Shown here: positions 5,865-42,959 of the stretch, in pieces
Layout of the letters: each line of letters begins with the position of its first letter
Position numbering within the stretch: the stretch's first letter is position 1
DNA from: Escherichia coli
GTDB taxonomy: Bacteria; Pseudomonadota; Gammaproteobacteria; Enterobacterales; Enterobacteriaceae
Direction: 5' to 3' (one strand)
Assembly: GCF_016903815.1 (NCBI RefSeq)
Contig: NZ_CP069971.1
DNA length: 48,644 nucleotides
Notes under the pieces: model-generated
Seen by the model: the letters and a program-made list of their open reading frames with translations, nothing else
The model's database searches: none
Told to the model about the DNA's origin: nothing
Translations under genes and position numbers: made by a program

Positions 5865-5874
5865 ATTCAACCAT

Positions 5875-5900: not shown

Positions 5901-5902
5901 CG

Positions 5903-6022
5903 CTACTTGCTGCTAATGTTTATCGTCACATTCAGAGCGTTATCAGTAATCTTCCAACCCTCCCCATGTGGCGTAAACAAAGCTCCAGTAACAACGATAA
6001 AAATACACATACAGTATTTTTT
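5903..6022 (-). CDS. small hydrophobic peptide (about 40 aa), function unknown
   Basis: MKKYCMCIFIVVTGALFTPHGEGWKITDNALNVTINISSK with an AGGG RBS, ending at the terminator hairpin. Confidence 0.3.
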   Translation of the reverse strand, partial: KKYCMCIFIVVTGALFTPHGEGWKITDNALNVTINISSK

Positions 6023-6423
6023 CATTGTATGGCCCTTACAGGCCGTTTCACGGCATCCCCACCGACGAAAACAACGCGAGAGCAAGCACGGCTGCTTGTG
6101 CTTGCATGTACGGCAACGGAGAATCCTCCCCTAAAGTCGGTGCCCGGGTGCGAATCGGCGGGAAGGTCCACAGGTATTTTACGATTATTTTAAGATTAGT
6201 TATAGGAAAGAAATTAAACGAAAAAACTCGTTTATTTTCACAAAATCAGTAACCTACCCACAATCTGTGAGTTTGCAGGCACAACAAGAACCACAATTTT
6301 ATGAAGCATAATAGTGGACTATTATTACCTTTTGGGTAAAATTAACTTGCTGCTTGTGCTTGCGTGGTTGTTTATACAACAACGTAATGCTGAAAGGACC
6401 GCGAATCCGATCAGCACGAAAGA

Positions 6424-6449
6424 ACCGTCCTCAATAGGGCGGTTTTTTT
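6424..6449 (+). terminator. intrinsic terminator/attenuator in the antirepressor leader
   Basis: ACCGTCCT-CAAT-AGGGCGGT followed by T7. Confidence 0.6.
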
Positions 6450-6468
6450 GTTTCTGCCTACCAATAAA

Positions 6469-6483
6469 CCCACACTATGTGGT
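6469..6483. promoter_or_regulatory. operator-like site CCCACACTATGTGGT (ACCAC-N5-GTGGT family)
   Basis: One mismatch to the operator consensus seen between the CI-like and Cro-like genes. Confidence 0.5.
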
Positions 6484-6593
6484 TGTCTCTGTTAAAATCC
6501 CGCCGTATTGACATAAATGCGCCATTGGTGGACACTTTCCTAGCCGTAGCAAAATCTACGGTCGGGATTGGAACCCCGTAGACACAATGGCGC

Positions 6594-6616
6594 ATACCGC
6601 GTTAGCGGTTTTTTTA
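6594..6616 (+). terminator. second terminator-like hairpin in the antirepressor leader
   Basis: ACCGC-GTTA-GCGGT followed by T7. Confidence 0.45.
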
Positions 6617-6781
6617 TGCGTAAAGCACTGCTACACCCAAATTATGGTGGGGCGTGCGGGGGAGTCGTAAGACTCGCCGGTTCGTCATTGTGTCCGGTAG
6701 TTCCAACCCTGCACGTCTCACCACCCAATGATTGGAACCTGACGGTGGTGAGTATCCTTAACCTTTAAGGGAATCATCACA

Positions 6782-6973: not shown

Positions 6974-8151
6974 AAACGCTTCCGACCGTTAACACCCTAC
7001 AGCCTATCCTGCATAACCAGATCCCCGTTATCACTACTGAACTACTGGCGCAATTGTATGGAACCGAGCGCCAACGTCTGACGAACAATTTCAATAGAAA
7101 CAAGGAACGTTTTATAGAAGGTAAACACTTTTTTAGGATAGAAGGTAAAGAGTTACGAGAGTTGAAGAACAAAAACTCTTTAAGAGTTCCTGTGAGAGTA
7201 GTTAACGAACCATCTTTAAGAGGGTTACAAATTCCCCCGAAAGTTCGCTCCCTCATCCTCTGGACAGAACGCGGGGCTGCACGTCACGCCAAAATGCTTG
7301 AAACTAACCAAGCGTGGGATGTGTTCGAACGGCTGGAAGACTGCTATTTCAGCCAGAACGCGCAAACGGCCGCGACCGTAACCGTCTCGCCAAGCAATGC
7401 TCGTGAGGTTGTTGATACGCTCAACGCCAAACCAATGTATTACGTTAAGGTGTGCAATAACGAGCCACTCACAACCTCAGCCGATGTTGCCCAGGCATTC
7501 AGCACCACAAACAATTCCATCGTTATGGCCATCGATGCGTTACGCATTCCTCGCACAGCTGCGGCGCGTCATTTCTTTAAAGAGCAACGACCGTTGGAAG
7601 GAAGCGACCGCGAAATAACAATCTATCGCATGACAAAAGACGGATTTACCTTGCTCATGGAAAGTATCGACGGTCCAAGCGTGAAGGATATCAAGCTGGC
7701 CTACATTGAAGCTTTTAACGCTATCAGCAGCGTGTTAAAGGCAGAATACGAGCGAATACTATACAACCGACTGTATCAGGAAACAAAGATTATCCGAACG
7801 GCAACAGAACATCATCGGCTATTAACGGAACCAAACTACCGCAAGACACTAATCAAAGAGTTTGACAAAGCGACGGAGAAAACTAAAGCGGCACTAAATC
7901 TACCAACAATGACTAAGGATGATGTGATATCAGCCTTACTTCTTGATCTACTCAGAAACGCCAGAGCACTTATAAGCTTTGACGAAAACCTGAATCCTCA
8001 GCTCAAGCTACTACCACCGACAGGCAAAGTAGTCGACCAGGCTGATCACAACAGCATACTCAGCGTTCTGGATGCAAACCTGCCAGCCAGGACACTACAG
8101 GAACTGATAAAAATATCTGCGGATAAACTGGCCGCAGGTGCAAAACCATAA
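6970..8151 (+). CDS. antirepressor-like protein (ORF6N/KilA-type N-terminal domain)
   Basis: 393 aa; N-terminal ...NNFNRNKERFIEGKHFFRIEGKELRELK...LILWTERGAARHAKMLETNQAWDVFERLEDCYF matches the ORF6N-type antirepressor pattern as I recall it. Confidence 0.6.
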   Translation: MKTLPTVNTLQPILHNQIPVITTELLAQLYGTERQRLTNNFNRNKERFIEGKHFFRIEGKELRELKNKNSLRVPVRVVNEPSLRGLQIPPKVRSLILWTERGAARHAKMLETNQAWDVFERLEDCYFSQNAQTAATVTVSPSNAREVVDTLNAKPMYYVKVCNNEPLTTSADVAQAFSTTNNSIVMAIDALRIPRTAAARHFFKEQRPLEGSDREITIYRMTKDGFTLLMESIDGPSVKDIKLAYIEAFNAISSVLKAEYERILYNRLYQETKIIRTATEHHRLLTEPNYRKTLIKEFDKATEKTKAALNLPTMTKDDVISALLLDLLRNARALISFDENLNPQLKLLPPTGKVVDQADHNSILSVLDANLPARTLQELIKISADKLAAGAKP

Positions 8152-8155
8152 AACA

Positions 8156-8176
8156 AAGCGCCCGATTTGGGCGCTT
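8156..8176 (-). terminator. hairpin terminator between convergent genes
   Basis: AAGCGCCC-GATTT-GGGCGCTT with a T-rich flank on the minus strand. Confidence 0.5.
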
Positions 8177-8185
8177 CTTCAATTC

Positions 8186-8821
8186 TTAATATTTCGGTGT
8201 AATCAGTAGCGATACATGCCCTGATTTGTCACGAGAAACGTAATACTCGCCTCTCTTAGTCTTGAACTCAGCTTTCTGCATATCAGATTTAACAATCTGC
8301 TCTAACTGCGCAATCACGGTGTCTCTTTCACTTGACGCATCCAAGACTTCAACTGCTACGGCCATAGAAAGCAAGGAATCAGAGTTAGGCTTGGATACTC
8401 GCCATAATAACTCAGAAATCTTCCCATCCTTATCAACTCTAGCCCGACCGTTAACAGATGAGTTGATGGCAAATTCAACGGTGTTGTTACCTTGTTTAAC
8501 AGACTTAATTCTTATAGTGGAGGTGGCTTTTCCTGATGTAGCGATGCCTTCAAGGTCATCATTATATAACTTCTTAAACTTATCTACGGTCACACCATCA
8601 AAAGCAGCTCCGGTAGTAGCCGCAGTGTTGGAGTCTTCTGGGATCAAGGTCACAGCCGCAAGAGTATTAACAACTACAAAAGTTGCAATCCCGAGAAAGC
8701 CACTCACTAAAACAGCTTTGAACTTACCACCAGAAGACGAGGCACATTGTTTCCGATATGCGCCACGAACTACGAAGAAACACAAAATCAGGCTAATAAT
8801 AAACGCCACCAGCATCCCCAT
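8186..8821 (-). CDS. membrane protein with two N-terminal TM helices, function unknown
   Basis: 211 aa; MGMLVAFIISLILCFFVV and AVLVSGFLGIATFVVVNTLAAV hydrophobic segments, then a soluble domain of about 150 aa. Confidence 0.55.
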   Translation of the reverse strand: MGMLVAFIISLILCFFVVRGAYRKQCASSSGGKFKAVLVSGFLGIATFVVVNTLAAVTLIPEDSNTAATTGAAFDGVTVDKFKKLYNDDLEGIATSGKATSTIRIKSVKQGNNTVEFAINSSVNGRARVDKDGKISELLWRVSKPNSDSLLSMAVAVEVLDASSERDTVIAQLEQIVKSDMQKAEFKTKRGEYYVSRDKSGHVSLLITPKY

Positions 8822-9386
8822 AGAAATCTCCTTTTAGATATAAGGGTAAAGCAATATCGTATTAGATCTTCCTTAAGACACAACCCCCCCTCCCCCCATA
8901 CAGGGTGCCCTTTACCGGAGTTCCGGCCCCTTCTCAAAAGCATCAAAAAAAGCTCGAGATCGAGTACCGGAACTCATGCCACCAGATAGCTCCACATCGT
9001 TTCCAATGCTTCGCCGCCGTGTGCGCCCTGTGACCCACAATCATGCCATTGGTCGTCTGATATACCTTCTTCTGCTCATAGAGCACAGGCGAGTTGTCGC
9101 ACTCCTGCCTTTCTCAGACTCGACTTAGTTTAGATCGCTGTTCCTGGCTTGCGTCAGCACACTTTCCCCTTGTACGCATACCCGCGCGCCACTTCGCCCA
9201 AAAACACCGAACCCAACGAAGTAGCAAAGACAACGACGCGAGCGTGAGTCTGAAACGTGCACCAGTAAAAAAGGGGTTGCAGGCGCAAAAAGATTTGATT
9301 ATCTTTAGACGCAAGAAAGCCGCCCCAATCAAGAGGTGTCTTTTTAAATCCAGCCTACCAAGCAAGATTTAAATTTCAGACTGAAA

Positions 9387-13848: not shown

Positions 13849-14055
13849 ATCTGGTCATTTTCCAACCAGACACCCACAATCATAACCACGTTACGTGGTT
13901 TTAAGAGAACTCTACCACAACACTTTCGGTCATGCACGAAGTCTCTCACTGATCGAACGATAATCCACCAGTAAAAGGATCTAAATTGGATCTCGTTTTG
14001 CGAGCATCATACTACTGGCCTAACTCCAGTCAATGATGAACATAACAACACTCCT

Positions 14056-14583
14056 TTATTCTGGTTTGTCTGGCCATTCGGGGTTTGCTGTGTCCACGCG
14101 ACTGACAAGAACACTGTAACGTTCCCAGGCTTCCAGTCGGATACGCTCCTCATCTGTTGCCATGCTCAGCCTGACAGCGCGTTCCAGCGGCCGGATAACT
14201 GATTCAGCTTCGGAAAGTAACGTGGCCTTTTGTGATTCGGCCTGTTGTTGCTGTTCGCCTGCCGTATAAATCCGCTTAATCACGGCACCATCCTTAAACA
14301 TCCATTTACCTGAGTCATCAGCACGTCGGTTGGAGGTAATATCAGGAACCTCAACAACGCTAAAACCTTCAGGATTAAGCGTTGAAGCATCTCTGGTGAT
14401 AGCGACAATAATATTATTTTCATCGTAAACAATCTTTATTGTGTCTGGCTGAAAGTTCTTCACTTCCTCATACCAGTTTTTCCCGTCTTCAGTGTAAAGC
14501 CAGATGACTCCGTGCTTCTTTGTTAACTCATACTGTTCCAGTGTTTTAGCGTTACCCGCTTTTATGTTCTTTAAGTGCATCAT
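14056..14583 (-). CDS. tail fibre assembly protein (Tfa-like)
   Basis: C-terminal ...[27 protein letters not shown], the Tfa signature. Confidence 0.75.
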
Positions 14584-14584
14584 A

Positions 14585-15625
14585 TTAAACGCTCGCTACA
14601 TTATACCAGGTGCCATTTATATACTTTTGAACGGGTCTGTAATAAACGCCCGCTATATTATCGGCAGAGTTGGACCCTGTATCCTGAACATTAATACCAG
14701 ACAATACATGACCTGACGGGCACTGGAAATTCCATGTTTGCCAGTTATTCACTCCATAATATTGCTGTGAACCAAGTCGAACATCTTTCACATATCTGGA
14801 ATCAAAATTGCCATAGTTGCCGGGAATAACTTGCGAGCCGCAAAGCCAATTCCCGTTATTATCCATGTACGCCTGACCATCGGTGCCATTTTCTGTCCTT
14901 GAATTATTAATCATGTAGATGCCAAATTGCTTATTCCCCAGACCACCAATCATAAATTTGCGATCAGCATGGTCCTGACGTAACAATGCCTGAGCACCAT
15001 CGGTGGATACCACATTACGTCCGAAAATAACATTCTGGTCACGCATATTTATCCACATGCCGGTACTGCTATTAATTGCCAAACGATTTGCATATACCCA
15101 AGCATTGGTTCCTATATCACCAGTAACATTGAGTCCATTACCGATAGAAACAGCGCCATTGGCGTTATTAATGGCAAACGGCCTTAAACTACTCCATGTT
15201 CCCAGGCTGTCTCCCGAATTGGTCAACATGAAGTATGTGTTTGAACCATCGTTTCGGATAAAGAATCCATAGTTGCCATAGGCAATACGCAGACCATTCG
15301 CCGATTTGGAAATAATCTCGCCATCAGCCGTTAAACCGCCGGTAAGAGTTCCTCCCGTTATTGGCAATGCACCAATATTTTTCGGCGTCAGGTTAATATC
15401 TGATGTTCCATCAAACGAAACGTTATTAATTTTACGGGCTGTTTTCAGCTTTGTAGCCGTTGAGGCATTGCCGGACAGCTCACCAGAAATGCCACCAACA
15501 ACTGTTAGATCACCAGTTATTGTGCCGCCTGAAATTTCCAGTTTTTTAGCAACATTACTCTTAATAGAGTCGATTTCATTTTTCAGATTAGTTATATCTG
15601 CTGGTATTGTTGTCACTGTTGCCAT
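14585..15625 (-). CDS. tail fibre protein (second, shorter variant)
   Basis: Contains [28 protein letters not shown], a motif shared with the 792-aa fibre; followed by the Tfa gene. Confidence 0.7.
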
Positions 15626-15634
15626 ATTAATTCC

Positions 15635-15913
15635 TTACGCCCATTCCCGCAGCGGTTGTTCTAATTGAACTTCAAAACCATCAAACATTTGTTGTTTCAA
15701 ACTGTCGTTTAAAATACGAACATTAACAAAGAAGCCATCATTTTTAATCACTGTTGGTTCTTCGTTCTCGCCGTTTGGTATTTCGGTATATGTAATACCT
15801 ACAACATCAAGAAGGATGTTGTTTTGCAGTTCTTCATTATCGTGCCAGGATATACTCTCTAAAAAAGAGTCGTATTCTGCTCTGTCTCTGAATTTCAACG
15901 TAATATCTTTCAT
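15635..15913 (-). CDS. hypothetical protein, possibly a fibre chaperone
   Basis: 92 aa; start overlaps the fibre gene stop (TAATG). Confidence 0.35.
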   Translation of the reverse strand: MKDITLKFRDRAEYDSFLESISWHDNEELQNNILLDVVGITYTEIPNGENEEPTVIKNDGFFVNVRILNDSLKQQMFDGFEVQLEQPLREWA

Positions 15914-18291
15914 TAAATAACCTCAGCCATTTGTTGGTCTGTTAATGCTTTATGCCATATTCTGAAATTCCTGATATGACCAAATAAATGACGTAAGCCT
16001 GCTGTAGTCTGGCCTCCAATACGGATGGTTGCAGAGTTCTGAATATAGGACCACGTAGTCTTTGTTTCGCTGGATATGCGCCCGTTACTTACTGAGCACG
16101 TAGACTGATCTGATTTTACACGCATCCCCATAACCATTTTTTCAAGCGATGCGTTTTCGTTTACCCGTCTGTTAGCTCCTCCAATATTGCAATAAGGAAA
16201 TCCGTCGTAATCTGTTGAACGACCGAAGCCAAGAATAATAGCCGCTCCGGTTTGATGACCGCCTGTATCAAAAACACGCGGCGCTGCATTTGGCGTTTTA
16301 TACCAGTTCTTATGTACCTCACAAAGAACCGTAAAAGGAAGATTATAAAGATTATTATTAATTGGAACTGTAACTATATCGCTTGCGCGGGTAGCCGCCG
16401 TCGTTCCTGAGATAATAAAAGATGATGCACACGAACCATCCTCAACCTGAGGGGTGGCCAGATAAATATAGTCTCCAGATACGGTTGCTCCGCCCTGCTT
16501 AGGAGAATACTGTATCTGAGATCCTATTTTTAACTCATCATCAATTGCCAGGATTGTTGCCTCTGCAAAAATCCATCCGGTAGCTTCGTCCTTTCTGACT
16601 CTCGCTGTAATCCTTGAGGCCGCGCCACCTGTCATATTAATTTCAAGCGTTTGTGTATCAATATATGCATCACCAAGAAAAGTTGTTGCACTACCGTCAT
16701 ATTTATCAAAGCGGATACGCAACCTTACCTGTCGTTCTGTTTTAAAACGACATGAGGTTGTCACGTACTTGTTATCGCCTGAAACATCAACTGACTTTGT
16801 AGCAGCAATTGATGCCATATTAATGGCTGACGTTTGCCCAATCAGAGAATCGTTACAGACAAACTTTCCATAGGTAAAACCAAAACTATCAGTCCCGGTT
16901 TCGGGAACATCCATATTTGACGATCGCCCCCAACTGGCAGGGTTTTCCGAATTGAGCATGTAGTTTGTTCGTTGTCCCTCAATAAGCAGGCCATCACGTT
17001 CAAATCGTGGCTCGTCAATGGCAGCCTCTGTAAGCACACCAGATTTATTAATATAGGTTGCTTTCGATGCGCGTTTAAACTTAACAACCTTGTCGCCAGG
17101 CATTGTTATTTCGTCGTCGCCAATAACAATCTTTTTATATGATGGCGAAAAGCCCGTAATCATATCCAGCGAATCGTTAAACGGTATCCACACATCAGGT
17201 AGCGGTTGAATAATCTTCCGGGCATCCTCCAGTGACAATGCTTCGATATCCGAGGCTGTTAAAGTAATATCTGACGAACCGTCAAATGAAACGTTGTTAA
17301 TCTTCCGTGCGGTTTTTAATTTCGTTGCGGTGTCGGCGTTCCCCGTCAGTGCGCCGTTGAGTCCGCCGTTGAAAGTCTGGCGTTCACTCCATGTGTTAGC
17401 CGTGCTCAACAGGGGGATCTTTTCACCGCTTGTGCCGAGTTCTCTTAAACCAAGGTACTGGATAACAGCAAGGACACTTGTTTTAGCCAGAATATTACGG
17501 CCGACTGACGTTAAATCAGCCAGGGCTACTGTGTCTTTACCGGTAAAGTACGGCAATTTATTTGCAGCCGTCGCAAGTCCTGCCAGAGCGGTGAGCGTAT
17601 CATCTGCTGGTTGTTTTTGCTTTGCTAGGTCAAACACTTCTTTGACGGCTTTTGGCGTTGCTGCGCGCGTTTCAGAGGTACTGTTAGTGTCACTACTGAG
17701 TTGAACAATGCCTTTTGAGGTTAAAGTTGCATCAGGATGATTACGTGATTGCTCATGTTTTACAATGGCTTGCTTAAGTCGCTTTGCTGAAACAGCTAGG
17801 GAATCATCTGTACCTGCATCAATTTCTTGTTCATTAGCAAATCTTGCTACTCCAACAACAGTTTCGGTTGCGGGAGGGTTAATAAACTCAACATCACCAA
17901 ATGTAATGTTTTTAGTATCAAGATTTTTAATTGCTATATCACTTGATATTAAAGCAATTGTAGAAGATGCTTTATTTATTATTACTTGTTCTTGCGAGTA
18001 TACAGCAAACAATGTTCCTTTATTTGTATACAAACCTATTGTATGGACAACATACTCATCTTTACTATCATCCTTCGCAGTTACATGAATGGTATCAGGA
18101 GAAACGACTTTGCCTCCTATTGTGGTAAGTCGCTTTATTTCATCTGTTATTTTTGTTTGTGTGGTTGATGTGACATAATATCTACTACCTAAACCAACAG
18201 AAACGATCTCAACTTTATTTGTTCCAGTCTTGTTGGCATTAACCAGCTCCTGACGCCCGGCGTCAGTCATCGTAAATAATAATTTACTCAC
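15913..18291 (-). CDS. tail fibre protein (long)
   Basis: 792 aa; [28 protein letters not shown] motif; directly downstream of the baseplate genes. Confidence 0.75.
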   Translation of the reverse strand: MSKLLFTMTDAGRQELVNANKTGTNKVEIVSVGLGSRYYVTSTTQTKITDEIKRLTTIGGKVVSPDTIHVTAKDDSKDEYVVHTIGLYTNKGTLFAVYSQEQVIINKASSTIALISSDIAIKNLDTKNITFGDVEFINPPATETVVGVARFANEQEIDAGTDDSLAVSAKRLKQAIVKHEQSRNHPDATLTSKGIVQLSSDTNSTSETRAATPKAVKEVFDLAKQKQPADDTLTALAGLATAANKLPYFTGKDTVALADLTSVGRNILAKTSVLAVIQYLGLRELGTSGEKIPLLSTANTWSERQTFNGGLNGALTGNADTATKLKTARKINNVSFDGSSDITLTASDIEALSLEDARKIIQPLPDVWIPFNDSLDMITGFSPSYKKIVIGDDEITMPGDKVVKFKRASKATYINKSGVLTEAAIDEPRFERDGLLIEGQRTNYMLNSENPASWGRSSNMDVPETGTDSFGFTYGKFVCNDSLIGQTSAINMASIAATKSVDVSGDNKYVTTSCRFKTERQVRLRIRFDKYDGSATTFLGDAYIDTQTLEINMTGGAASRITARVRKDEATGWIFAEATILAIDDELKIGSQIQYSPKQGGATVSGDYIYLATPQVEDGSCASSFIISGTTAATRASDIVTVPINNNLYNLPFTVLCEVHKNWYKTPNAAPRVFDTGGHQTGAAIILGFGRSTDYDGFPYCNIGGANRRVNENASLEKMVMGMRVKSDQSTCSVSNGRISSETKTTWSYIQNSATIRIGGQTTAGLRHLFGHIRNFRIWHKALTDQQMAEVI

Positions 18292-33707: not shown

Positions 33708-35564
33708 CTATATGGTTACGCCTTTACTTATAACTCTACGGCGTCTTCTACGTATACCTGACGAGTTCTGCACATACACATTACCTCGCATTTCCTGTTC
33801 GGCAAGCCAGTTAAAATTAGGGTTCAGAATTTCCATCGCGGCAGTTGCATAGTTACGGCAATCAAGAGGCTCGTTACGCTCGTAGACTTTCACCCACTTT
33901 TCTTTTGTCTGCCCATTTTTATATTCAAATATTTTTTTCTCTGATAATAATCCTTTAAAGTATTCGGTATCATATCCTCTGTCAGAATCTAATGGGAAAT
34001 GCATATAACCAGGACCAGGATCATGTAGTTTAATTCTTGCCATGATGGTCCCTTTACCATCATCAACCCCCAAATTAAACAACATAGCACCCACACGGTT
34101 ATTATTACTTGGCTTTCCTATAAATGGTAAACCTACCCCACCACGCCCCCTGATAGAGTATATTCGCCTTGATTCTCTCGGCTTAGTAAAGCGATATACC
34201 TCTGTCGTAAAATGCCCACCAGAGTCAATACAAACGGAAGAAATCTGTAATTTTCGACCGTCACGGAATGACCAGCTACGGAGTAAGTATTCATCAAGTT
34301 GTTTCCAGACAACATCTTGTGCGGGATCACCTGGGAATATTTTATATTCTATCCCCCATGACTCCTTACCTTTTCCCCAACCGACCAATTCACAAACTAA
34401 ATACGTGTCCTGTACGTCAACACCAGCACTTAACAATAAAACATCATCTGGTAAAAACTCTTCAAACCTTATTCTGCGTTGCAACAAGTATTCAGGATCG
34501 ATATCGTCTTTAGCATCCTCTTTCCATGGCTCACCCAGCTTAAGGTTAATAAACTCCATTAATCCATTTTTATCGCGGTTTCTGGTTGCTTCCGTAAATT
34601 CTTCAACCAGCTCTGACAATGCAACCCACGGGGAGTAAAGACTGTTAATATGAAAACCAACAATACCTTTAACTCCAGTATGTTCAGCTATCCATACCCC
34701 CTTCGCCAACCAATCAACGTCTGGTTTACCAGATCCGCGCATAATCCCGCCGCACTCACAGCACTCATATCTGGCCGTTTCCGGTAACGCCTCACCTGAA
34801 TCGCTCTTATCCCATCTGACTTGCGACCATTTCATCACCTGCATGGTGCCACAACATGGGCAAGGAACATGGTAGTAACGCTGATCGGAGAGCTTAAACC
34901 ACTTGTGGATTTTGCTCGTTTCCTCCAAAACAGGAGTAGAAACAAAAACTTTCTTACGATTATGAAAGTTGGTAGTACGCTGAATACCTAGTTTTAGTGG
35001 GTCGCCCTCCTGCGTCACACCGTAACGATCAATCTCATCAGCTAACAGTATTCGAATTGGCCTGGATGCAAGACCTGCTGGGGAATTAGCACCAACAAGT
35101 GCTATATATCCACCAGCGTAATGCTTCATACGTATAGTCGTGCTGGACTTTTTGGCTGCACCGCGCCCCTCTTTCCCTTCATGCAGCTTGTGTTTCAAAC
35201 CAGGGGAATATTTGAACGTCGGATCAATACGCTCCTTTGAAAAAGCCTCAGCCGCCTCTACCGTTGGATAAATCATCAACTGAGGAGATGGCTCCTGATC
35301 TGCAAAGTAACCCATAACATTTAGCTGTAATTCGGATTTACCAATTTGTGAGCTACATTGCATCACTACTGTTTCTGTATCAGCGTCACCAATAACATCC
35401 ATTGGTTCACGTAAATATGGCACTCGGCTTGTACGCCACGGCCCTGGCTCTGGAGACGTTCCCGGCGCTACATGACGATACTTATCAGCCCATTCGGAAA
35501 CAGTTAGCCGTGATTTAGGGCGAAGCGCACGGAAAAAAGCGGTGCTCCATACTGTTTCGCCCAT
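33708..35564 (-). CDS. terminase large subunit (lambda gpA-like)
   Basis: 618 aa; ...YHVPCPCCGTMQVMKW...RYECCECGG... Cys cluster and overall size. Confidence 0.85.
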   Translation of the reverse strand: MGETVWSTAFFRALRPKSRLTVSEWADKYRHVAPGTSPEPGPWRTSRVPYLREPMDVIGDADTETVVMQCSSQIGKSELQLNVMGYFADQEPSPQLMIYPTVEAAEAFSKERIDPTFKYSPGLKHKLHEGKEGRGAAKKSSTTIRMKHYAGGYIALVGANSPAGLASRPIRILLADEIDRYGVTQEGDPLKLGIQRTTNFHNRKKVFVSTPVLEETSKIHKWFKLSDQRYYHVPCPCCGTMQVMKWSQVRWDKSDSGEALPETARYECCECGGIMRGSGKPDVDWLAKGVWIAEHTGVKGIVGFHINSLYSPWVALSELVEEFTEATRNRDKNGLMEFINLKLGEPWKEDAKDDIDPEYLLQRRIRFEEFLPDDVLLLSAGVDVQDTYLVCELVGWGKGKESWGIEYKIFPGDPAQDVVWKQLDEYLLRSWSFRDGRKLQISSVCIDSGGHFTTEVYRFTKPRESRRIYSIRGRGGVGLPFIGKPSNNNRVGAMLFNLGVDDGKGTIMARIKLHDPGPGYMHFPLDSDRGYDTEYFKGLLSEKKIFEYKNGQTKEKWVKVYERNEPLDCRNYATAAMEILNPNFNWLAEQEMRGNVYVQNSSGIRRRRRRVISKGVTI

Positions 35565-35569
35565 GAGGT

Positions 35570-36121
35570 TTATTCTTCCTGCTTAATAAATCGGGATTCC
35601 TGGAGCGCCTGAAGCGCAAAATTAATCTCGTCTTCAATAATGCGTTCGATCTCCCTGGCTGTTTTGCCTTCACAACGGGGAGCTGCTCTTGGAGCAATAC
35701 TAAATAAGCGGCTACGCAATTCATTAGCTGCCAGAAATGCATCATCCCTGACCGCATCTTTAGCGATGAGAGAGCCTTCCTTTTCTTCAAATTCAAGGCG
35801 TTTCAGCTTTGCCTGATAAATTTTTTCTGCGGTCTTAGCCTTGTTGAATTGCACCGCAACACCGGAAGTACCACCAGCTAATCCGGCATCATCAGCGGGT
35901 AACTCTGGTTGTTCCGAAGATATCCCATGCCCTCTTTTTCCATTTTCAGCAGATACCTCACGACCAACCTGTCGGCTCGCTTCATAAGCCGCACTGGCTT
36001 TATCAAAATCCAGCTTGCCGCTTTTCAGCACTGGAATGCGACCGGAACGACAGAGCTTCGTAACCATTGCCGGAGAAATACCTTTCCGGCGGGCAAACTC
36101 TGACTTACTGACGATGGCCAT
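35570..36121 (-). CDS. terminase small subunit (Nu1-like)
   Basis: MAIVSKSEFARRKGISPAMVTKLCRSGRIPVL... HTH N-terminus; ATG overlaps the upstream gene stop (TAATG). Confidence 0.7.
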   Translation of the reverse strand: MAIVSKSEFARRKGISPAMVTKLCRSGRIPVLKSGKLDFDKASAAYEASRQVGREVSAENGKRGHGISSEQPELPADDAGLAGGTSGVAVQFNKAKTAEKIYQAKLKRLEFEEKEGSLIAKDAVRDDAFLAANELRSRLFSIAPRAAPRCEGKTAREIERIIEDEINFALQALQESRFIKQEE

Positions 36122-36711
36122 TACTTGCAACCATTGGCAAGATACTGAACAAATCCCTCATGCGTTTCATGCGCGTCGTGGTACTGACGATAAACATCCA
36201 GCAACAATGCAATTTCCATATCCGTCGCGGGAATACGTTCTTTATCAATAGCCAGGTACTTAATTTGAACAACAGGGGAAGAATTATCGTCTTCTTCCTG
36301 CGGCTGTTCATCGCTTAACATTTCGTCAAGCTCTGCATCATTAAACCCAAGCAGATCAATATCAAAATCATCATCCATTAACTCTTTGACTTCTTCGGCC
36401 AGAAGCTGCATATCCCAGCCAGCATTTAAGGCCAGCTTGTTATCTGCAATCCTGTACGCCTTCTTCTGTTTTTCAGAAAGGTTACTCAACCGAATCGCCG
36501 GAACTTTATCCATTTCCAGAATTTCGGCTGCTGCAAGCCGCCCATGCCCCGCAATCAGTTCATTCTTTTCATCGATCAGCACAGGATTAGTGAAACCGAA
36601 CTCACGGATACTGTTCACCAACTGTTCAACTTGCTCATCTGAATGAGTCCGTGAATTTTTGGCATATCTGAGCAGCTTACCGACTGGTAAATATTCGATT
36701 TTTAGAGCCAT
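36121..36711 (-). CDS. ParB-like N-terminal domain (ParB/Srx fold) protein
   Basis: 196 aa; ...LIDEKNELIAGHGRLAAAEIL...; paralog of 39378-40001. Confidence 0.7.
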   Translation of the reverse strand: MALKIEYLPVGKLLRYAKNSRTHSDEQVEQLVNSIREFGFTNPVLIDEKNELIAGHGRLAAAEILEMDKVPAIRLSNLSEKQKKAYRIADNKLALNAGWDMQLLAEEVKELMDDDFDIDLLGFNDAELDEMLSDEQPQEEDDNSSPVVQIKYLAIDKERIPATDMEIALLLDVYRQYHDAHETHEGFVQYLANGCK

Positions 36712-37268
36712 TTTTTAACCGCCATAACACAACAGGTTAAAGAAAACTGTTTAACTTATTGATACTAAAAGAGAAAAATGACGATCTTTTTACTCATAAA
36801 AAATCACACAAACCAGCATAATCATCTGATTTTATTAAGTTTTTATAAGTAAAAAGGATCTTGCGATGGTTTTTTGGTTAAAAGATTGGATGTATTTGCA
36901 TGATTTATAACGATTTTTATCAGAACAACATCACATTGGTTAAAGATCTGCGCGTATCTTGATGATCTAAAAGAAAATTTTCTACTTTCTTTTTACCAGC
37001 ACAAGCACAGCAAAAAATCACGTTTTCCCAATATTTTTCAATGAGATGAGTAAATTTCTTTTACCGCAACTTTTAACCTAACTTTTTTCACGTTTAGCTA
37101 GCCGAACATCGGGGTTCGAATGACCCGCATCCAACGCTTTTGTCCAGAAGGACCCAATTCTGCCGGACGATGAAACGATGCTCGTGCACCCCCACAGACA
37201 GCCAGCGAGCGACGCTACAGAACACAGTGAATACACTCTGCATAACAACACCATCAACCACACGATGA
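36712..37268. other. AT-rich non-coding region with clustered GATC sites; candidate cos/packaging and late-promoter region
   Basis: About 550 bp without a credible ORF, upstream of the terminase operon. Confidence 0.35.
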
Positions 37269-37988
37269 TTAACGAGAGAAGGTCTTGGAAAGAATGTCAT
37301 CAATAGCCTTTGTGACTTCATCAGCAAACGCATCCTCACCAGCACGCAGCGCCACGCCATGCCAATCAAGACGCTGCGAATAGTTAGGTTGCTGGATAAA
37401 CGTAAGGATCAACGTAGGACGCCGCCCAACGCGCTGCCAGACGCCTGGTTGAAGCGGGTTACTTGTACCAGGTCGAACAACAAAAAACTCCGTAGGCTTG
37501 CCCTGACGGCGATTTTGATGCGCATCTCGCTGAACTCTTAGGCCAGATAAGACCTGCTGTAATTGCCCCCGCGAAATATTCCCGTATTTGTCCAGCTTTG
37601 CGCCGGGACCAGGAGCAATCTGCCAGCCGTTAGGCAAATATCCACCAGCCCTTAGCGCCCCTTCTGAGCGTTTGTACTGTCGTTGGCCACCTTCGATTTG
37701 CGGAGTCAACGTTACAGGGGCTGGCGTTCCTCCCCATTCACGAGCATACACAATGGCTGTAGGATCACTCTTCTTTGCGGCCAAAACGTAAGTAGAGTTC
37801 TGAATCCACGGCGTGGGCCTGTCAAATACCCGATTAATTTCATTCTTAATCGCAGCCTGAGAAGCCTTTGCCGTTCTGGTTGCCGCAAGCGCCATTGCGA
37901 ACGGCAATTCGCGTTCTTCAAGGCGCTGGAGTTGTCGTTGAATATCCTGAGAAGAAAAATCCATCTTTATCTCAATTCTGTCAGCCAC
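37269..37988 (-). CDS. hypothetical protein (239 aa)
   Basis: ORF downstream of the ParB-methyltransferase fusion gene. Confidence 0.5.
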   Translation of the reverse strand: MADRIEIKMDFSSQDIQRQLQRLEERELPFAMALAATRTAKASQAAIKNEINRVFDRPTPWIQNSTYVLAAKKSDPTAIVYAREWGGTPAPVTLTPQIEGGQRQYKRSEGALRAGGYLPNGWQIAPGPGAKLDKYGNISRGQLQQVLSGLRVQRDAHQNRRQGKPTEFFVVRPGTSNPLQPGVWQRVGRRPTLILTFIQQPNYSQRLDWHGVALRAGEDAFADEVTKAIDDILSKTFSR

Positions 37989-38004
37989 CAGCGCCTCCTA
38001 CACA

Positions 38005-39384
38005 CTACTTAATCAACGGCCGGAAAGCCGCCAGCACATCATCAGATCGTCCGATTGTTGAACCACCAGGCAACGGCAACTCAAACTCAAAACGAACAGC
38101 TTTCTCCAGACTCGCCCAACTAAGGGAATCATCGTTAATGACGTGCAAATACCAGCTCTTACAGTTGAATATTGACCGCTTAATCCTGAAACCATGTACA
38201 CGACACAACTGCTTCACTTCCTCATCAGAGTGAAACTTCTGGTAAAACCAGTGCCCCTTCCGGTACAACGCGGTAAAACCGTCATGATCAATAAAATAAA
38301 GCCGGCTTTTGGAACTCGCCGCTTGTGTTTGCTTCAGGACTGTTTCCAGTTCTCCACGGCTACGGCCAGAAAAGAATATTGACCCACCAGCTTTACACAG
38401 GCCTTTCAGAACCGTCAGAACGGACCATTCAGCCTCGACACTATCGACCGAGTTCAAAACGCTATCGCAAATCACGTAGTCGTAACGCCCTCGCGTTTTT
38501 AAGTCGTCCACCAGCGTATCAATCATCCGGTTTGTTGCGGCCCTATCCAGAGTGTTTCCAGCGCCCTTACGGCGGAAAAGCTCGAGATCATGCAGGTTAT
38601 ATCCCTTTGCCCTGAGCATTCGCGCGTAGTCTCCCTGCCCCGAACCAAAATCAATTCCTCTTGGCGTCTTGGCAATGATCGGGAGGATCAACGACTCATA
38701 CAGATTTGATTTCAGGCTGCCACCATTACGCAACCGCATAAGCTGCGCATACGTCTGGATGTATGTTGTTTTCTCCAGATGAGAATACTCAAATACACCA
38801 TAAGTTTTATTCAGATAACTTTGGTATTTTTCCTTCTCAACATCAGGGATCACAAACACCGTTAGCGGTGTGCGCGTCATTTTCGCTGCTAATGCATACT
38901 GAGCACAGTGAATAACCTCACCAGACTGAGTAGCAACACAACCACCCCACGGACCATACTTGATAACCAGTTCCGCTATGTTCTTTCGAACATATGCCAT
39001 TTTCGCGCGCATATTGCCTGAGATCTGGCTTGCCGATACCTGAACAAAACCATGCTTATCTTCCAGACCGGACACCCTGCAACGCTCATCTCCGCTATCA
39101 AAATCCGTTCCGTTATGCAGTTGGTTAAACCGTACTTCGTCGTATACCGTCGTTTCACAGGGCAACACATACACCGCAGCACGCGTTATTCCCAACTTAC
39201 GTAGCGCCTTCGTCCTTTGGTGTCCCGCCACCAGCAAATCGCCGCGCACTATCAATGGCTTCACAAGCCCCAGCTCCCTGACGCTTTCCGCCAGCCTCGC
39301 AAGATCATCCTCACCGATAAAACGCGGGTTATATTCCGCGCCGCGTAGGTGCGTTATGTCGTAATTGAGGTGAAGCATCAGCAC
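38005..39384 (-). CDS. fusion protein: ParB-like N-terminal domain + class-I SAM-dependent methyltransferase-like C-terminal domain
   Basis: N-terminal ...LIVRGDLLVAGHQRTKALRKLG...; C-terminal GIDFGSGQGDYARML, DYVICDSVL, LCKAGGSIFFSG motifs; no DPPY/NPPY motif seen. Confidence 0.65.
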   Translation of the reverse strand: MLMLHLNYDITHLRGAEYNPRFIGEDDLARLAESVRELGLVKPLIVRGDLLVAGHQRTKALRKLGITRAAVYVLPCETTVYDEVRFNQLHNGTDFDSGDERCRVSGLEDKHGFVQVSASQISGNMRAKMAYVRKNIAELVIKYGPWGGCVATQSGEVIHCAQYALAAKMTRTPLTVFVIPDVEKEKYQSYLNKTYGVFEYSHLEKTTYIQTYAQLMRLRNGGSLKSNLYESLILPIIAKTPRGIDFGSGQGDYARMLRAKGYNLHDLELFRRKGAGNTLDRAATNRMIDTLVDDLKTRGRYDYVICDSVLNSVDSVEAEWSVLTVLKGLCKAGGSIFFSGRSRGELETVLKQTQAASSKSRLYFIDHDGFTALYRKGHWFYQKFHSDEEVKQLCRVHGFRIKRSIFNCKSWYLHVINDDSLSWASLEKAVRFEFELPLPGGSTIGRSDDVLAAFRPLIK

Positions 39385-40001
39385 ACCTCCCCAGCCAGCA
39401 ATGCGGATACAAATCCGATATAGCTGCCATTATCATCAACATAACGAGACACCGCGCAGTCAAAACGATCCGCTTCCTCATCCGTTGCCGGGATTTTATG
39501 ACCTCCAAATGACAGGTACTGAACTTTTACGCCTGATTTGGCCTCATCCTTCTCAAATGGGATATCCATACCCTCTGTGTCATCGTAGACTGCCGCACTC
39601 AATAAGTTATCCAGTTCGCGCTGAGTAAAACCAATTGAGTCCAGAGCAAAATCATCGGCCGCAAGATCTGCAAGCTCCGCGCTTAACAACTCTTCATCCC
39701 AACCAGCATTCAGCGGAATACGGTTGTCGGCCAGACGATATGCCTTCTTCTGATTCTCCGTTAGCCCAGCCAGAACAATGCAGGGAACATCATCCATCCC
39801 CAACTGAGTGGCCGCAGCAATTCGACCATGACCAGCAATTACAACGTTGTTCTCGTCTATCAGGATCGGATTAGTCCATCCGTACTCCTGTATGCTGGCA
39901 ACAATCTGATCTACCTGCTCCACGGAGTGTGTGCGAGCGTTCTTTTCATAACCAATCAACACAGAAAGTGGTAAAGAAACCACATTAAGATGTTTTGTCA
40001 T
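39378..40001 (-). CDS. ParB-like N-terminal domain protein (paralog)
   Basis: 207 aa; aligns by eye with 36121-36711 over most of its length. Confidence 0.7.
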   Translation of the reverse strand: MTKHLNVVSLPLSVLIGYEKNARTHSVEQVDQIVASIQEYGWTNPILIDENNVVIAGHGRIAAATQLGMDDVPCIVLAGLTENQKKAYRLADNRIPLNAGWDEELLSAELADLAADDFALDSIGFTQRELDNLLSAAVYDDTEGMDIPFEKDEAKSGVKVQYLSFGGHKIPATDEEADRFDCAVSRYVDDNGSYIGFVSALLAGEVC

Positions 40002-40646: not shown

Positions 40647-40844
40647 AACATCACCTGAAAATAAAAAGCCCCGCGACACCGCGAGGCTGTAAGAGTTACT
40701 TTCGATATAAATCAAGGCGCATTTGCTCCCGCTTAAGCCGAAAAGCCCTCTGCGCCACTAAGATGCGCCACAGGACACCAGCGATAACCACCAGCGAGAT
40801 ACAAAAACACACGGCCACAACCATCAGAAAAATGCCAACACCAT

Positions 40845-41334: not shown

Positions 41335-41408
41335 CCCATGTTCTCCTTTGTCTGGATGTAAAAAAGCCCCGGCAATTGCCGAGGCTCGTTGTTCGTTATC
41401 GTTACGGT

Positions 41409-41987: not shown

Positions 41988-42575
41988 CTATGCCACTTGC
42001 CAGAGAGCATCATGCAACTGGATACCTCCATTGCACTGGTTGCCCCAGCCATGCCAACCATCAGGTAAATCACCGCGAGCAAACAGCTCAATACGAGGAA
42101 CATCACCTAACAGCCTTACCAGCTTGTCACGAACCACATCAGGCTTCCGAGAATGCTCCAGACGAGGCGATGTAAACGACTGAATGATCCCCGCATCAAG
42201 GCGGGTCGGCAATTTGCCTTTTACCGCAAACAAGCAATCTTCACTGTTTGCACGAGTCATATGCCCCATCCCCATCACCAGCTTATCTGGTTGTCGGCTA
42301 CCACATTTGTTCCATGTGAAGCCCTTCATGGTCATAAGCCTGAATCCCCATGCTTTCACCACCAGCAACGCTTCTTCTGGCTGAGTCGGAACCCACCACA
42401 TGGCCAACAAACACGATTCAGGATTAGCAAGCTGCCAGACAGGAATACGAGCAATATCCTCAGCTTTCATCGTTGGATACTTAAAACCAGCTCCACGATT
42501 CCCATCCTTACACTTATCTTTGTATTCCCAGGGGGGATCTGCATAAATCAGATTAAACAATGCAATTGCCTCCAT
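41988..42575 (-). CDS. MT-A70-family DNA N6-adenine methyltransferase
   Basis: 195 aa; LIYADPPWEY and ...SRKPDVVRDKL... motifs. Confidence 0.75.
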   Translation of the reverse strand: MEAIALFNLIYADPPWEYKDKCKDGNRGAGFKYPTMKAEDIARIPVWQLANPESCLLAMWWVPTQPEEALLVVKAWGFRLMTMKGFTWNKCGSRQPDKLVMGMGHMTRANSEDCLFAVKGKLPTRLDAGIIQSFTSPRLEHSRKPDVVRDKLVRLLGDVPRIELFARGDLPDGWHGWGNQCNGGIQLHDALWQVA

Positions 42576-42883
42576 GTTAGTTGTGCCTCCGGCGCTGATC
42601 TCCGGCAGTCATAACGCTGGCCAGCTCTACAGCAGACACAACGAAAAGGGCACTAACCAGACTGATTAATGCCCTTGCCTGTTGTGTGCCGGATATCGCC
42701 CGACAACGCTGTTTTGGTAACACGGCTACAGTTCCGTGCCGCTCCAGCTTTTACCCCTTTGCGGATAACAGGCCCTGCCTGTAACTTAGCCCCACGTTCG
42801 CCCGAAATGCGCACCAGGCACGCATAAAGATGAGCACGAAGGAAGTAACTCCACCGCGCTTATCTTTATGTGTGAGAGTGAAT

Positions 42884-42959
42884 TGGTGGCCCCTACCGGA
42901 TTTGAACCGATGACCGTGCGATTATGAGTCGCCTGCTCTAACCACTGAGCTAAGGGGCC
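42884..42959 (-). tRNA. tRNA with CAU anticodon (Met or Ile2-type)
   Basis: 76 nt; GGCCCCTTAGCTCAGTGGTTAGAGCAGGCGACTCATAATCGCACGGTCATCGGTTCAAATCCGGTAGGGGCCACCA; cloverleaf folds by eye, encoded CCA end. Confidence 0.8.

Follow-up and report, generated by a model that had tools for sequence, protein, structure and literature searches.

A stand-alone ParB-like protein and a ParB/methyltransferase fusion form a conserved, terminase-proximal gene pair in phages and are candidates for a DNA-modifying unit

What might a phage gain from a ParB-tagged methyltransferase and free ParB-like proteins whose genes are positioned next to those for DNA packaging? This question is raised by a locus within a stretch of 48,644 nucleotides from Escherichia coli (contig NZ_CP069971.1 of assembly GCF_016903815.1; hereafter, the window). 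The window represents an entire phage-plasmid of 48.6 kb, which is non-conjugative and possesses its own ParA partition system; 77 of the 80 places in which the element was found are on plasmids, and it is kept as a plasmid of approximately 48 kb in E. coli. The PGAP annotation of the whole element contains neither conjugation, nor oriT-associated, nor ard/psi genes, and it places the ParB/methyltransferase genes between the lysis and the terminase genes, amid the phage late genes. A preliminary description of the locus had likened it to the anti-defence (leading) regions of plasmids, an analogy that is ruled out by the full annotation of this non-conjugative element and by the affiliation of the genes with a terminase-proximal phage family. 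The four open reading frames concerned (two small ParBs, the fusion and a 239-aa gene) are real and are all located on the minus strand. They adjoin, as that description had noted, the terminase genes (33708-36121, minus strand), with terS at 35570-36121 (phrog_57, E = 7e-42) and a lambda gpA-type terL at 33708-35564, identified by its annotation as the terminase large subunit. In addition, the phage-plasmid encodes an MT-A70 DNA methyltransferase with the motif DPPW.

The fusion gene (38005-39378, minus strand) encodes a protein of 457 amino acids that starts with an ATG codon at position 39378, as it does in all homologs and in the GenBank/RefSeq annotation. The GTG codon at 39384, from which a 459-aa protein had initially been read, is not the start, and the overlap with the upstream gene, previously given as 39378-39384, amounts to a single nucleotide (TGATG) shared with the stop codon of sParB-207. 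The protein matches phrog_5475 (E = 6e-265), a family listed under 'unknown function'; its PGAP name is generic and GenBank annotators refer to it as a 'nuclease'. Pfam recognizes a ParB_N domain at residues 9-70 and a Methyltransf_23 domain (PF13489) at residues 233-400, a combination also precomputed for nearly all homologs, and an AlphaFold2 (AF2) model of high quality (pLDDT 93, pTM 0.89) supports the ParB folds and the C-terminal Rossmann methyltransferase fold that had been anticipated for the protein. The fusion is basic (pI ~8.7-9.1) and belongs to a family of roughly 200-400 clusters at 50% identity.

Domain 1 (residues 1-98; 39085-39378, minus strand) is a ParB N-domain with the NTP-pocket boxes YNPR, GHQR and FNQLHNGTD. 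It can be aligned to Spo0J/ParB chains of the PDB, with their GERR opposite its GHQR, and it is also related to the profile of the small ParB proteins (hhalign E = 5e-19). The fold of the N-domain and box I/II/III-like residues are thus held in common with the canonical ParB of ParABS systems, whereas the canonical GERR motif is replaced by GHQR or GHGR in the proteins studied here; the GHQR motif of domain 1 is present in all 66 family members inspected, and box I (YNPR) is likewise invariant. Domain 2 (residues 99-192; 38803-39084, minus strand) had been regarded as an unknown middle domain. It certainly exists, but most likely represents another ParB/Srx fold, degenerate and without the GxxR arginine: its order of secondary structure elements in the AF2 model (strand-helix-strand-strand-helix-strand-helix) is that of domain 1, and hhalign connects it with the small ParB profile (E = 4.7e-5, 67 columns in register) and with domain 1 itself (E = 0.003). 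Apart from phrog_5475, domain 2 has no Pfam or PHROG match, and it joins the methyltransferase domain in almost no architecture other than the one with three domains (199 clusters at E <= 1e-30).

Domain 3 (residues 193-457; 38008-38802, minus strand) is a divergent class-I SAM methyltransferase with the seven strands of a Rossmann-like methyltransferase fold. Its SAM loop reads DFGSGQGD at residue 243, E266 is embedded in the sequence ELFRR, and D243, G247, D250 and E266 are invariant. The lack of the DPPY/NPPY motif, pointed out at the outset, extends to the family, as [DNS]PP[YFWH] occurs in 0 of 103 distinct members; the MT-A70 gene of the phage-plasmid served as the control. The motifs of C5-methyltransferases are not conserved either (PC[QK] in 1/66, ENV in 4/66), and the near-invariant Cys304 is replaced in some family members. 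Pfam does not detect PF01555 (N6_N4_Mtase) in the fusion or in the small ParB protein. When used alone, domain 3 retrieves only noise from NCBIfam and PHROG (E between 0.04 and 0.3) apart from phrog_5475, and only marginal matches in a PDB sequence search; it resembles small-molecule and tRNA methyltransferases (Trm9, TehB, UbiG-like) more than DNA methyltransferases. The sequence points to a chemistry other than C5-cytosine methylation or, as a DPPY-type motif is missing, standard N6-adenine/N4-cytosine methylation.

Two paralogous small ParB proteins (48% identity, E = 5e-62), already recognized as such from the sequence, accompany the fusion. sParB-207 (207 aa; 39378-40001, minus strand) is a stand-alone acidic ParB/Srx-fold protein with a Pfam ParB_N domain and a match to phrog_620 (E = 4e-74), and sParB-196 (196 aa; 36121-36711, minus strand) matches the same family (E = 5e-75), whose label is 'ParB-like partition protein'. 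Members of the sParB family retain the NTP-pocket residues, with a conserved box II of the type GH(G)R, and lack the helix-turn-helix (HTH) DNA-binding domain; indeed, no recognizable DNA-binding domain is present in either the fusion or sParB. With a median pI of 4.5 and a net charge of -15.5, the sParB proteins are opposite in charge to the fusion. Longer sParB homologs carry low-complexity C-terminal tails only, and a Rosetta-stone check among them revealed no fusion to an enzyme. Upstream of sParB-207, a promoter scan found no promoter-like site, and the coding strand bears three terminator-like hairpins (42676, 41387, 40688); transcription together with the late genes can therefore only be inferred.

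Given the family label, and the designation as 'chromosome (plasmid) partitioning protein ParB' by annotators, one might take the small ParBs for the centromere-binding segregation proteins of an element that is, after all, maintained as a plasmid. We consider this exceedingly improbable and reject a partition role. The window has a partition system of its own, whose single ParA gene (217 aa, PGAP annotation) is followed by that for an 82-aa partner approximately 33 kb away from the ParB genes; therefore, the small ParBs are not partition proteins. The TIGR00180 scores obtained (29.8, 40.1 and 16.4 bits, the first two belonging to the small ParBs) cover the N-domain only and stay below the cut-off of 58.45, and the ParA-binding motif (L/F/I)G(K/R)G(L/F/I) occurs in 0 of 60 sParBs and is absent from the fusion. 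Furthermore, the same gene pair neighbors the terminase genes of a Bacteroides phage and of viral contigs that represent several terminase families.

The gene for the 239-aa protein (37269-37988, minus strand), which starts with GTG and is preceded by AGGAGG, had been counted as the third member of a three-gene cluster. It accompanies the fusion in merely 6 of 64 loci, namely the closest ones with fusions at least 69% identical; in distant fusion loci, the downstream genes are unrelated to it. In Pseudomonas phage MD8 and the loci L087 and L088, all of which lack the ParB and methyltransferase genes, a homolog is the final gene ahead of cos/terS. This pattern of co-occurrence and these independent contexts lead us to dismiss the gene as part of the unit and to assign it to the lambda-type cos/terminase module. 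The protein matches phrog_1924, a PHROG label ('minor tail protein') that stands by itself: no Pfam or PDB-sequence match was obtained with the single sequence or a profile, Foldseek found nothing significant in the PDB with the AF2 model (pLDDT 85; best E = 0.47), and a similarity to a chain of the SaPI1 neck complex is weak (82 columns, E = 8.4).

A probable cos cleavage site with a 12-nt overhang is situated at 37114-37125, in the 557-bp AT-rich gap (36712-37268) between the 239-aa gene and sParB-196. Its position is deduced from the breakpoints of Yersinia phage records, which fall at 37125|37126 in vB_YpM_39 and vB_YpM_41 and at 37113|37114 in vB_YpM_44, exactly 12 nt apart. Likewise, the genome or contig ends of MD8 and L088 are found just past the 239-aa homolog. 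The motif GGTTAAAAG is repeated in the gap, where 4 of its 16 occurrences lie; as a candidate binding site it was discarded since the count in the window (16 versus 15.4 expected) is at the level of chance. sParB-196 is the first gene past the probable cos site, and its stop codon overlaps the start of terS (TAATG), an arrangement indicative of translational coupling. Stand-alone ParBs of this type are also found upstream of the terminase in Vibrio phage phi 2 and Rhodobacter phage RcMeacham, in each case as the first gene of the record. sParB-196 is a separate neighbor, and the functional unit consists of two genes, sParB-207 and the 457-aa fusion.

How firmly these two genes belong together became evident from the comparison of phage genomes. 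Fusion homologs are carried by 77 IMG/VR loci. Among distinct loci with a full-length fusion and sufficient sequence ahead of it, all 59 carry an sParB gene directly upstream in the same orientation, and the stop and start codons overlap in most of them. The pairing persists down to 33% identity, and at one locus the partner ParB still shows 50% identity to sParB-207, against only 45% for the fusion. The hosts of the phages that carry the pair comprise Enterobacterales, alphaproteobacteria and Bacteroides. A homolog from a Brochothrix phage (27% identity) is exceptional, in that it resides in the early region and has no annotated ParB gene immediately upstream.

The genomic position of the pair is similarly conserved. 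In most loci it precedes terminase or portal genes by 0.4-3.6 kb, with at least five families represented among the terminases: a gpA-type terL lies downstream in 19 of 54 loci, and in a further 18 that were tested, 17 ORFs downstream of the pair encode a terL (phrog_38, phrog_9, phrog_979, phrog_2) or a portal protein. In Bacteroides phage BS-TP3 the order is ParB, fusion, terS, terL. The slot ahead of the terminase is commonly filled by unrelated accessory genes, and therefore position alone implies no function. It nevertheless invites the idea that the small ParBs, with or without the fusion, assist the terminase at cos/pac as a nicking or DNA-handling cofactor, with the methyltransferase labeling either the DNA end or the packaging machinery. 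HK97-like phages offer a comparison, as their HNH endonuclease (gp74) is likewise encoded by a small accessory gene in the cos/terminase slot, although its fold differs from that of the ParB proteins. The proximity to terL or portal genes across these terminase families speaks for such a packaging role, and so do the coupling of sParB-196 to terS just past the probable cos site and the leading position of the ParB genes of phi 2 and RcMeacham; moreover, the ParB domains of ParB-methylases can nick DNA, as exemplified by Bce_0392 (work cited in PMC5512222). Most phages of the same terminase families do without the pair, however; MD8 and L087, for instance, combine a gpA terminase with the 239-aa gene and are devoid of ParB, so that the pair cannot be a core part of the packaging apparatus. 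A conserved SAM-binding enzyme would also be left unaccounted for, and we regard a packaging role as improbable.

The relatives of sParB are more informative. Sequence comparisons place it closest to the ParB portions of DNA methyltransferases from phages and to a ParB whose gene overlaps that of a TET-associated glycosyltransferase (TAGT). The small ParBs match the ParB module of the ParB-N6/N4 DNA methyltransferases of phrog_498 (E = 2e-50 and 4e-52), exemplified by the 'ParB-methylase' Bce_0392 of B. cereus and Wolbachia WO methylases, and that of the PADLOC model MTase_II PDLC03229 (E = 3e-37 and 2e-40); domain 1 of the fusion yields weaker matches (E = 1.5e-11 and 5e-8). These alignments are restricted to the ParB part (positions 31-183 of 633 and 14-158 of 436), and in tblastn the N-terminal ~140 amino acids of sParB share 35-60% identity with the corresponding part of phage N6/N4 methyltransferases. 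Several members of the ParB-N6_N4 group map at or near record ends, the usual placement of terminase genes. There are clear differences in design: in the ParB-N6_N4 enzymes the ParB is fused to the enzyme, whereas here this type of ParB is a separate protein, and the enzyme has a different ParB of its own together with a degenerate second domain; for catalysis, phrog_498 uses an N6_N4_Mtase domain and the fusion a Methyltransf_23-like domain devoid of DPPY. In the E. coli phage vB_EcoS-473R12, a ParB with 61% identity is encoded upstream of terS by a gene overlapping that for the TAGT (PF20691).

Two described systems offer precedents for the pairing of a small ParB with an enzyme. A phage ParB without a DNA-binding domain activates the DNA T-dioxygenase 5mYOX176 on double-stranded DNA (PMC13229309). 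Going by its description, this ParB176 resembles sParB in being a small phage protein with a nucleotide-binding and a C-terminal domain and no HTH, encoded adjacent to an enzyme that modifies DNA post-replicatively and depends on it for activity on double-stranded DNA (PMC13229309). 5mYOX176 is, in contrast, an Fe/2OG dioxygenase devoid of its own ParB, whereas the fusion is a SAM methyltransferase bearing ParB domains. A type IV restriction enzyme requires both a ParB_N-only GmrS homolog and a ParB_N-HNH GmrSD protein (PMC12373910), by description the same two-gene logic of a ParB_N-only gene and a ParB_N-effector gene; these proteins serve host defence with an HNH effector and use the DUF262/DGQQR branch of the ParB superfamily, whereas the pair studied here is phage-borne and has a methyltransferase as its effector. 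Fusions of ParB-CTPase and Methyltransf_23 domains have been catalogued as enriched in phages and prophages in the relevant passages of a 2025 PNAS survey, according to which a gut-phage member (uvig_65837_18) was purified along with an R-to-A pocket mutant (PMC12704722). The Pfam architecture of this phage-borne class is identical to that of the fusion, and uvig_65837_18 may belong to the same family; those passages mention no substrate or role, no obligatory sParB partner, no second ParB-like domain and no terminase-proximal position. The earlier view of the module as uncharacterized thus holds in that no function has been assigned, NCBIfam has no match for the methyltransferase domain and our literature search found no characterized member of the fusion family, but the architecture as such has been listed by the survey passages just mentioned.

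Since sParB is akin to the ParB of DNA-modifying enzymes, a ParB-assisted modification of DNA before packaging is favored. We suggest, tentatively and with a probability that we put at about 45%, that sParB-207 and the fusion form an accessory unit that methylates phage DNA before it is packaged. The two proteins, produced together through TGATG coupling, would most likely act as one complex, in which sParB-207, in response to nucleotide, probably partners or controls the fusion's own ParB domain. Its target would be phage DNA, methylated late in infection and shortly ahead of packaging, and progeny DNA might thereby gain a protective or marking modification. The DNA-modification role put forward in the preliminary description thus receives circumstantial support from the phage ParB-methyltransferase, TAGT-gene and T-dioxygenase links. 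Several observations count against DNA methylation: the resemblance of domain 3 to Trm9/TehB/UbiG-like enzymes together with the absent amino- and C5-motifs, the absence of a DNA-binding domain from both proteins, the strongly acidic nature of sParB, the phage's own MT-A70 DNA methyltransferase, and the Brochothrix exception. To these can be added the mutations in the ParB pocket that left 5mYOX activation in place (PMC13229309); nucleotide gating may therefore not apply. A bolder version of the DNA-methylation proposal, which we regard as rather doubtful, has sParB and the ParB of the enzyme join in a heterodimeric clamp, gated by nucleotide, that loads a non-canonical methyltransferase on the DNA undergoing packaging, where a methyl mark of a type that known DNA methyltransferase families do not produce (e.g., at a ring nitrogen, the backbone or an already modified base) would blunt host defences.

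The same traits of domain 3 might be read differently. The ParB folds could sense or bind ATP/CTP, and the methyltransferase could act on RNA (tRNA or rRNA), on a protein of the host or the phage, or on a small molecule or nucleotide, possibly as a late-expressed host-takeover or anti-defence function. The basic enzyme suits a nucleic acid, a property that does not distinguish RNA from DNA. We deem a non-DNA substrate unlikely, albeit worth keeping in mind: sParB is of a type otherwise fused or adjacent to DNA-modifying enzymes, and the invariant adjacency to packaging genes would be left without explanation. Some ParB-like nucleases, as well as Osa, degrade or nick DNA, and a ParB nuclease or toxin directed at host or competitor DNA, combined with a methyltransferase that protects the DNA of the element, might act in the manner of a restriction-modification system or serve exclusion. 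Among ParB/Srx domains with GHxR-type motifs are DNases and nickases (PMC5512222), and the 'nuclease' label of the fusion and the PADLOC match to a type II methyltransferase model are in line with such a unit. That match is confined to the ParB part, however, and no PADLOC defence-system model matches a whole protein; nuclease-specific evidence is absent, and the family is carried by phages beside structural genes and not in defence islands. We attach little likelihood to this explanation.

ParB-fold domains are widespread as nucleotide switches outside chromosome segregation, and the sParB/fusion pair provides a clean and widely conserved test case for the roles of ParB proteins in phages. 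It can reveal whether an enzyme tagged with ParB domains is under the control of a free ParB, and whether phage DNA is modified by a methyltransferase outside the known families of DNA methyltransferases; such studies are eased by the small phage-plasmid, which is found in common E. coli strains such as ATCC 25922. Should the substrate be ordinary, or not be DNA at all, the value of the finding would mainly lie in a better annotation of proteins that are frequently mislabelled as 'ParB partition protein' or 'nuclease' in the genomes of phages. The clamp proposal, if true, would mean a new DNA-methylation enzymology and would put the ParB switch to a new use.

The conserved unit in this part of the window is a pair of minus-strand genes, encoding a small stand-alone ParB of 207 amino acids (sParB-207; 39378-40001) and a ParB/methyltransferase fusion (38005-39378). 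The four minus-strand open reading frames of the preliminary description are all present, and their coordinates need only small corrections. As it had proposed, the two small ParB proteins are paralogs: sParB-207 and the 196-residue sParB-196 (36121-36711) are 48% identical (E 5e-62), both match phrog_620, and the former also carries a Pfam ParB_N match. The genes of the pair do overlap, but by one shared base (TGATG) and not over 39378-39384; the ATG at 39378 gives a fusion protein of 457 amino acids, a start shared by every homolog and by the GenBank and RefSeq annotations. The 239-amino-acid reading frame (37269-37988) begins with GTG 16 nt past the fusion stop codon, with AGGAGG in front of it, and the stop codon of sParB-196 overlaps the start of the small terminase gene terS (TAATG).

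Between the lysis genes and sParB-207 the coding strand has three GC-rich, terminator-like hairpins, each with a T tail (40667-40688, 41364-41387 and 42646-42676, minus strand); transcription of the pair with the late genes would require read-through or antitermination past them. A phage-encoded tRNA gene with the anticodon CAT (42884-42959, minus strand) is called tRNA-Met by ARAGORN and in the GenBank phage record and tRNA-Ile by PGAP, the latter call requiring lysidine modification.

The domain reading of the fusion is borne out by Pfam matches to ParB_N (residues 9-70) and Methyltransf_23 (residues 233-400), and phrog_5475 (labelled 'unknown function') matches the protein over its full length (E 6e-265). 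The family is strongly conserved, with a mean column identity of 57% in a 40-sequence alignment, in which the ParB boxes YNPR, AGHQR and E..FNQLHNGTD and the methyltransferase motifs DFGSGQGD, E266 with R269/R270, D.V.N.S.D, FFSGR and W.FQK.H are invariant; GHQR is the alignment counterpart of the GERR P-motif in Spo0J/ParB structures. For the middle segment, earlier described as an unknown domain, a second ParB/Srx fold is suggested by the AF2 model (pLDDT 93, pTM 0.89), in which the strand and helix order of residues 1-90 recurs in residues 110-190, and by profile-profile alignments with 60 small ParBs (67 columns in register, E 4.7e-5) and with the first domain (E 0.003). This second domain (residues 99-192) would then be a degenerate ParB/Srx fold in which the GxxR arginine is missing. 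When 1.84 billion cluster representatives were scanned with the second domain plus methyltransferase unit, 199 clusters matched at E <= 1e-30; since nearly all of these proteins are 450-490 amino acids long and match from near residue 100-135 onwards, the three-domain architecture is fixed.

The catalytic domain lacks the (D/N/S)PP(Y/F/W/H) motif, as had been noted, in all 103 family members inspected (0/103), whereas DPPW is present in the product of the window's MT-A70 gene. This gene for an MT-A70-family DNA methyltransferase (41988-42575, minus strand) lies about 2 kb upstream of the pair and is transcribed in the same direction; the element thus holds two methyltransferase genes of very unlike kinds.

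Among 77 related loci from IMG/VR in which open reading frames were called, we found 64 distinct full-length fusions, 59 of them with 650 bp or more of sequence upstream, enough to look for a partner. A small ParB gene lies directly upstream on the same strand in all 59, usually with overlapping stop and start codons, and the pairing holds down to 33% fusion identity. The partner is itself conserved, being 50% identical at one locus where the fusion is only 45% identical. The gene for a Brochothrix phage protein with 27% identity to the fusion lies in the early region, and no ParB gene is annotated directly upstream of it.

The position of the pair recurs as well. A lambda gpA-type large terminase gene lies 0.5-3.6 kb downstream in 19 of 54 loci, a terminase of another family (phrog_38, 9, 979 or 2) or a portal gene follows just downstream in 17 of 18 further loci by PHROG comparison, and in Bacteroides phage BS-TP3 the order is ParB, methyltransferase-domain protein, terS, terL. 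This proximity, together with the terS-coupled paralog sParB-196, speaks for an accessory role in DNA packaging, an idea weakened by the fact that most phages sharing these terminases lack the pair, and one that we regard as unlikely. The pair is retained away from this position in a Bradyrhizobium prophage and in one metagenomic group. In the Bradyrhizobium barranii prophage (locus L003, 9900-17200), opposite-strand Amidoligase_2 and GGACT/AIG2 genes and weak N6_Mtase/MTS matches adjoin the pair; gene sets of the Amidoligase_2, GGACT/AIG2 and N6_Mtase type are connected to complex DNA base modification.

The small ParB also has relatives in other enzymatic settings. Over roughly the first 140 residues it matches the ParB portion of the common phage ParB-N6/N4 DNA methyltransferases (phrog_498, E 2e-50; PADLOC MTase_II, E 3e-37), and tblastn identities to such methyltransferases from Vibrio, Streptococcus, Wolbachia, archaeal and other phages are 35-60%. 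The records of Vibrio phage phi 2 and Rhodobacter phage RcMeacham each begin with a stand-alone ParB gene of this type, which precedes the terminase genes. A 61%-identical ParB gene in E. coli phage vB_EcoS-473R12 (locus L091, 3489-5205) overlaps a TET-associated glycosyltransferase gene (PF20691, E 3e-34), and both follow the lysis genes and stand just ahead of terS; this is a second case of such a ParB coupled to a DNA-modifying enzyme. ParBs of this type are thus repeatedly fused to, or encoded beside, DNA-modifying enzymes.

Comparable two-protein arrangements have been described. A T-dioxygenase acts on double-stranded DNA only with the help of a small phage ParB that has no DNA-binding domain (PNAS 2026, PMC13229309), and a type IV restriction enzyme needs both a ParB_N-only GmrS homolog and a ParB_N-HNH GmrSD (2025, PMC12373910), the same two-gene logic as that of the small ParB and the fusion. 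DNA nicking by the ParB domains of ParB-methylases has also been reported (PMC5512222); that the pair itself forms a nuclease or exclusion unit we consider quite improbable.

We tentatively suggest, as the best-supported reading and at a probability of roughly 0.45, that the pair is a two-protein, ParB-assisted methyltransferase in which the small ParB would assist the fusion enzyme, and that the complex may methylate phage DNA by a non-standard chemistry late in infection, ahead of packaging. The fusion is basic (pI 8.7), with its positive charge carried by the second domain and the methyltransferase, and the small ParBs across the family are markedly acidic (median pI 4.5, net charge -15.5); these opposite charges fit both a complex of the two proteins and a nucleic-acid substrate, while proving neither. 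However, the catalytic domain resembles small-molecule and tRNA methyltransferases, and no DNA-binding domain is visible. A non-DNA substrate, with the ParB domains serving as nucleotide sensors, is a reading to be weighed, albeit a somewhat doubtful one. In a survey of the ParB-CTPase fold (PNAS 2025, PMC12704722), ATP binding is reported for ParB-fold/SAM methyltransferase fusions, Methyltransf_23 is listed among the preferentially phage fusion domains, its activity is termed 'predicted DNA methyltransferase' with a proposed anti-defence role, and a gut-phage ParB-Methyltransf_23 example was purified together with a pocket mutant. Our literature search found no characterization of the family to which the pair belongs, in line with the earlier surmise, but the architecture had, as the survey attests, already been catalogued.

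The 239-residue protein had been grouped with the pair as a three-gene cluster, a view that does not hold: its gene accompanies only 6 of the 64 fusions, these six all being at least 69% identical, and in more distant loci the genes downstream of the fusion are unrelated. In phages with a lambda gpA-type terminase its homologs instead consistently close the right arm, behind the lysis genes and ahead of cos/terS. The homolog in Pseudomonas phage MD8 sits at the right end of a record that starts with terS, gpA-type terL, a small head-tail adaptor and portal, with neither ParB nor methyltransferase in the stretches examined; the homologs of F10 and JBD68 are likewise at the right end. A metagenomic prophage (L087) has the order holin, 239-residue homolog (6001-6744), a 191-amino-acid gene in the terS position and gpA terL, another homolog ends a 41-kb contig (L088, 6001-6792), and a further member lies at 5469-6212 of comparison locus L007. 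These recurring contexts make the gene part of a lambda-type cos/terminase module. Its family is phrog_1924, labelled 'minor tail protein'; in the confidently predicted structure (pLDDT 85) long helices at the N and C termini surround a beta sheet, and searches gave no Pfam or PDB sequence match and no significant PDB fold match.

An AT-rich gap of 557 bp (36712-37268) follows this gene, and the records of Yersinia phages vB_YpM_39, vB_YpM_41 and vB_YpM_44 break within it at 37125/37126 (two) and 37113/37114 (one). These two points are separated by exactly 12 nt, the spacing that a 12-nt cohesive end would give. A cos site at 37114-37125 is therefore probable, the putative cohesive end reading GGTCATTCGAAC on the minus strand; if so, the pair and the 239-residue gene end the right arm, and the terS-coupled sParB-196 opens the left arm. 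Of the 16 near-matches to GGTTAAAAG in the window, 4 fall in the AT-rich ~400 bp between the putative cos and the next gene, a stretch that also contains several inverted repeats, for instance one at 36786-36856 with 31-nt arms.

Over its whole length, and as a circle, the window is collinear with the 47.8-kb E. coli plasmid pMB17626_3, in which PGAP annotates RepA, a RelE/ParE toxin-antitoxin pair, a 217-residue ParA followed by an 82-residue protein, lysis genes, lambda-like head genes and a contractile tail; it is thus a complete circular phage-plasmid of ~48.6 kb with its own partition system. Among 5,426 complete E. coli genomes, 73 carry the region, ATCC 25922 included; 77 of its 80 places are on ~48-kb plasmids, and both E. 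coli and Y. pestis have served as hosts for the isolation of near-identical phages. The ParA and 82-residue genes (window ~4707-5652, mapped from 7915-8860 of comparison locus L086), far from the pair, look like a small type Ib-like partition system. The small ParBs were rejected as partition ParBs, having no helix-turn-helix, a TIGR00180 score below the cut-off and no ParA-binding motif, and a partition function of the pair is hardly credible. The likeness to plasmid leading-region anti-defence islands fails because the element has no conjugation genes. In the counterpart of window 1-25000, related Yersinia phages have annotations for a DNA invertase of the hin type and for a higB2 toxin, and the stretch at ~14055-17592 shares 84% identity with phage P1, which suggests an invertible tail-fibre segment.

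Our analysis adds to this family an invariant small-ParB partner, a likely second ParB-like domain and a terminase-proximal position that spans terminase families, and it excludes the 239-residue gene. The pair is neither a categorically new system nor unique to the window; we place it tentatively among the ParB-associated phage DNA-modification enzymes.
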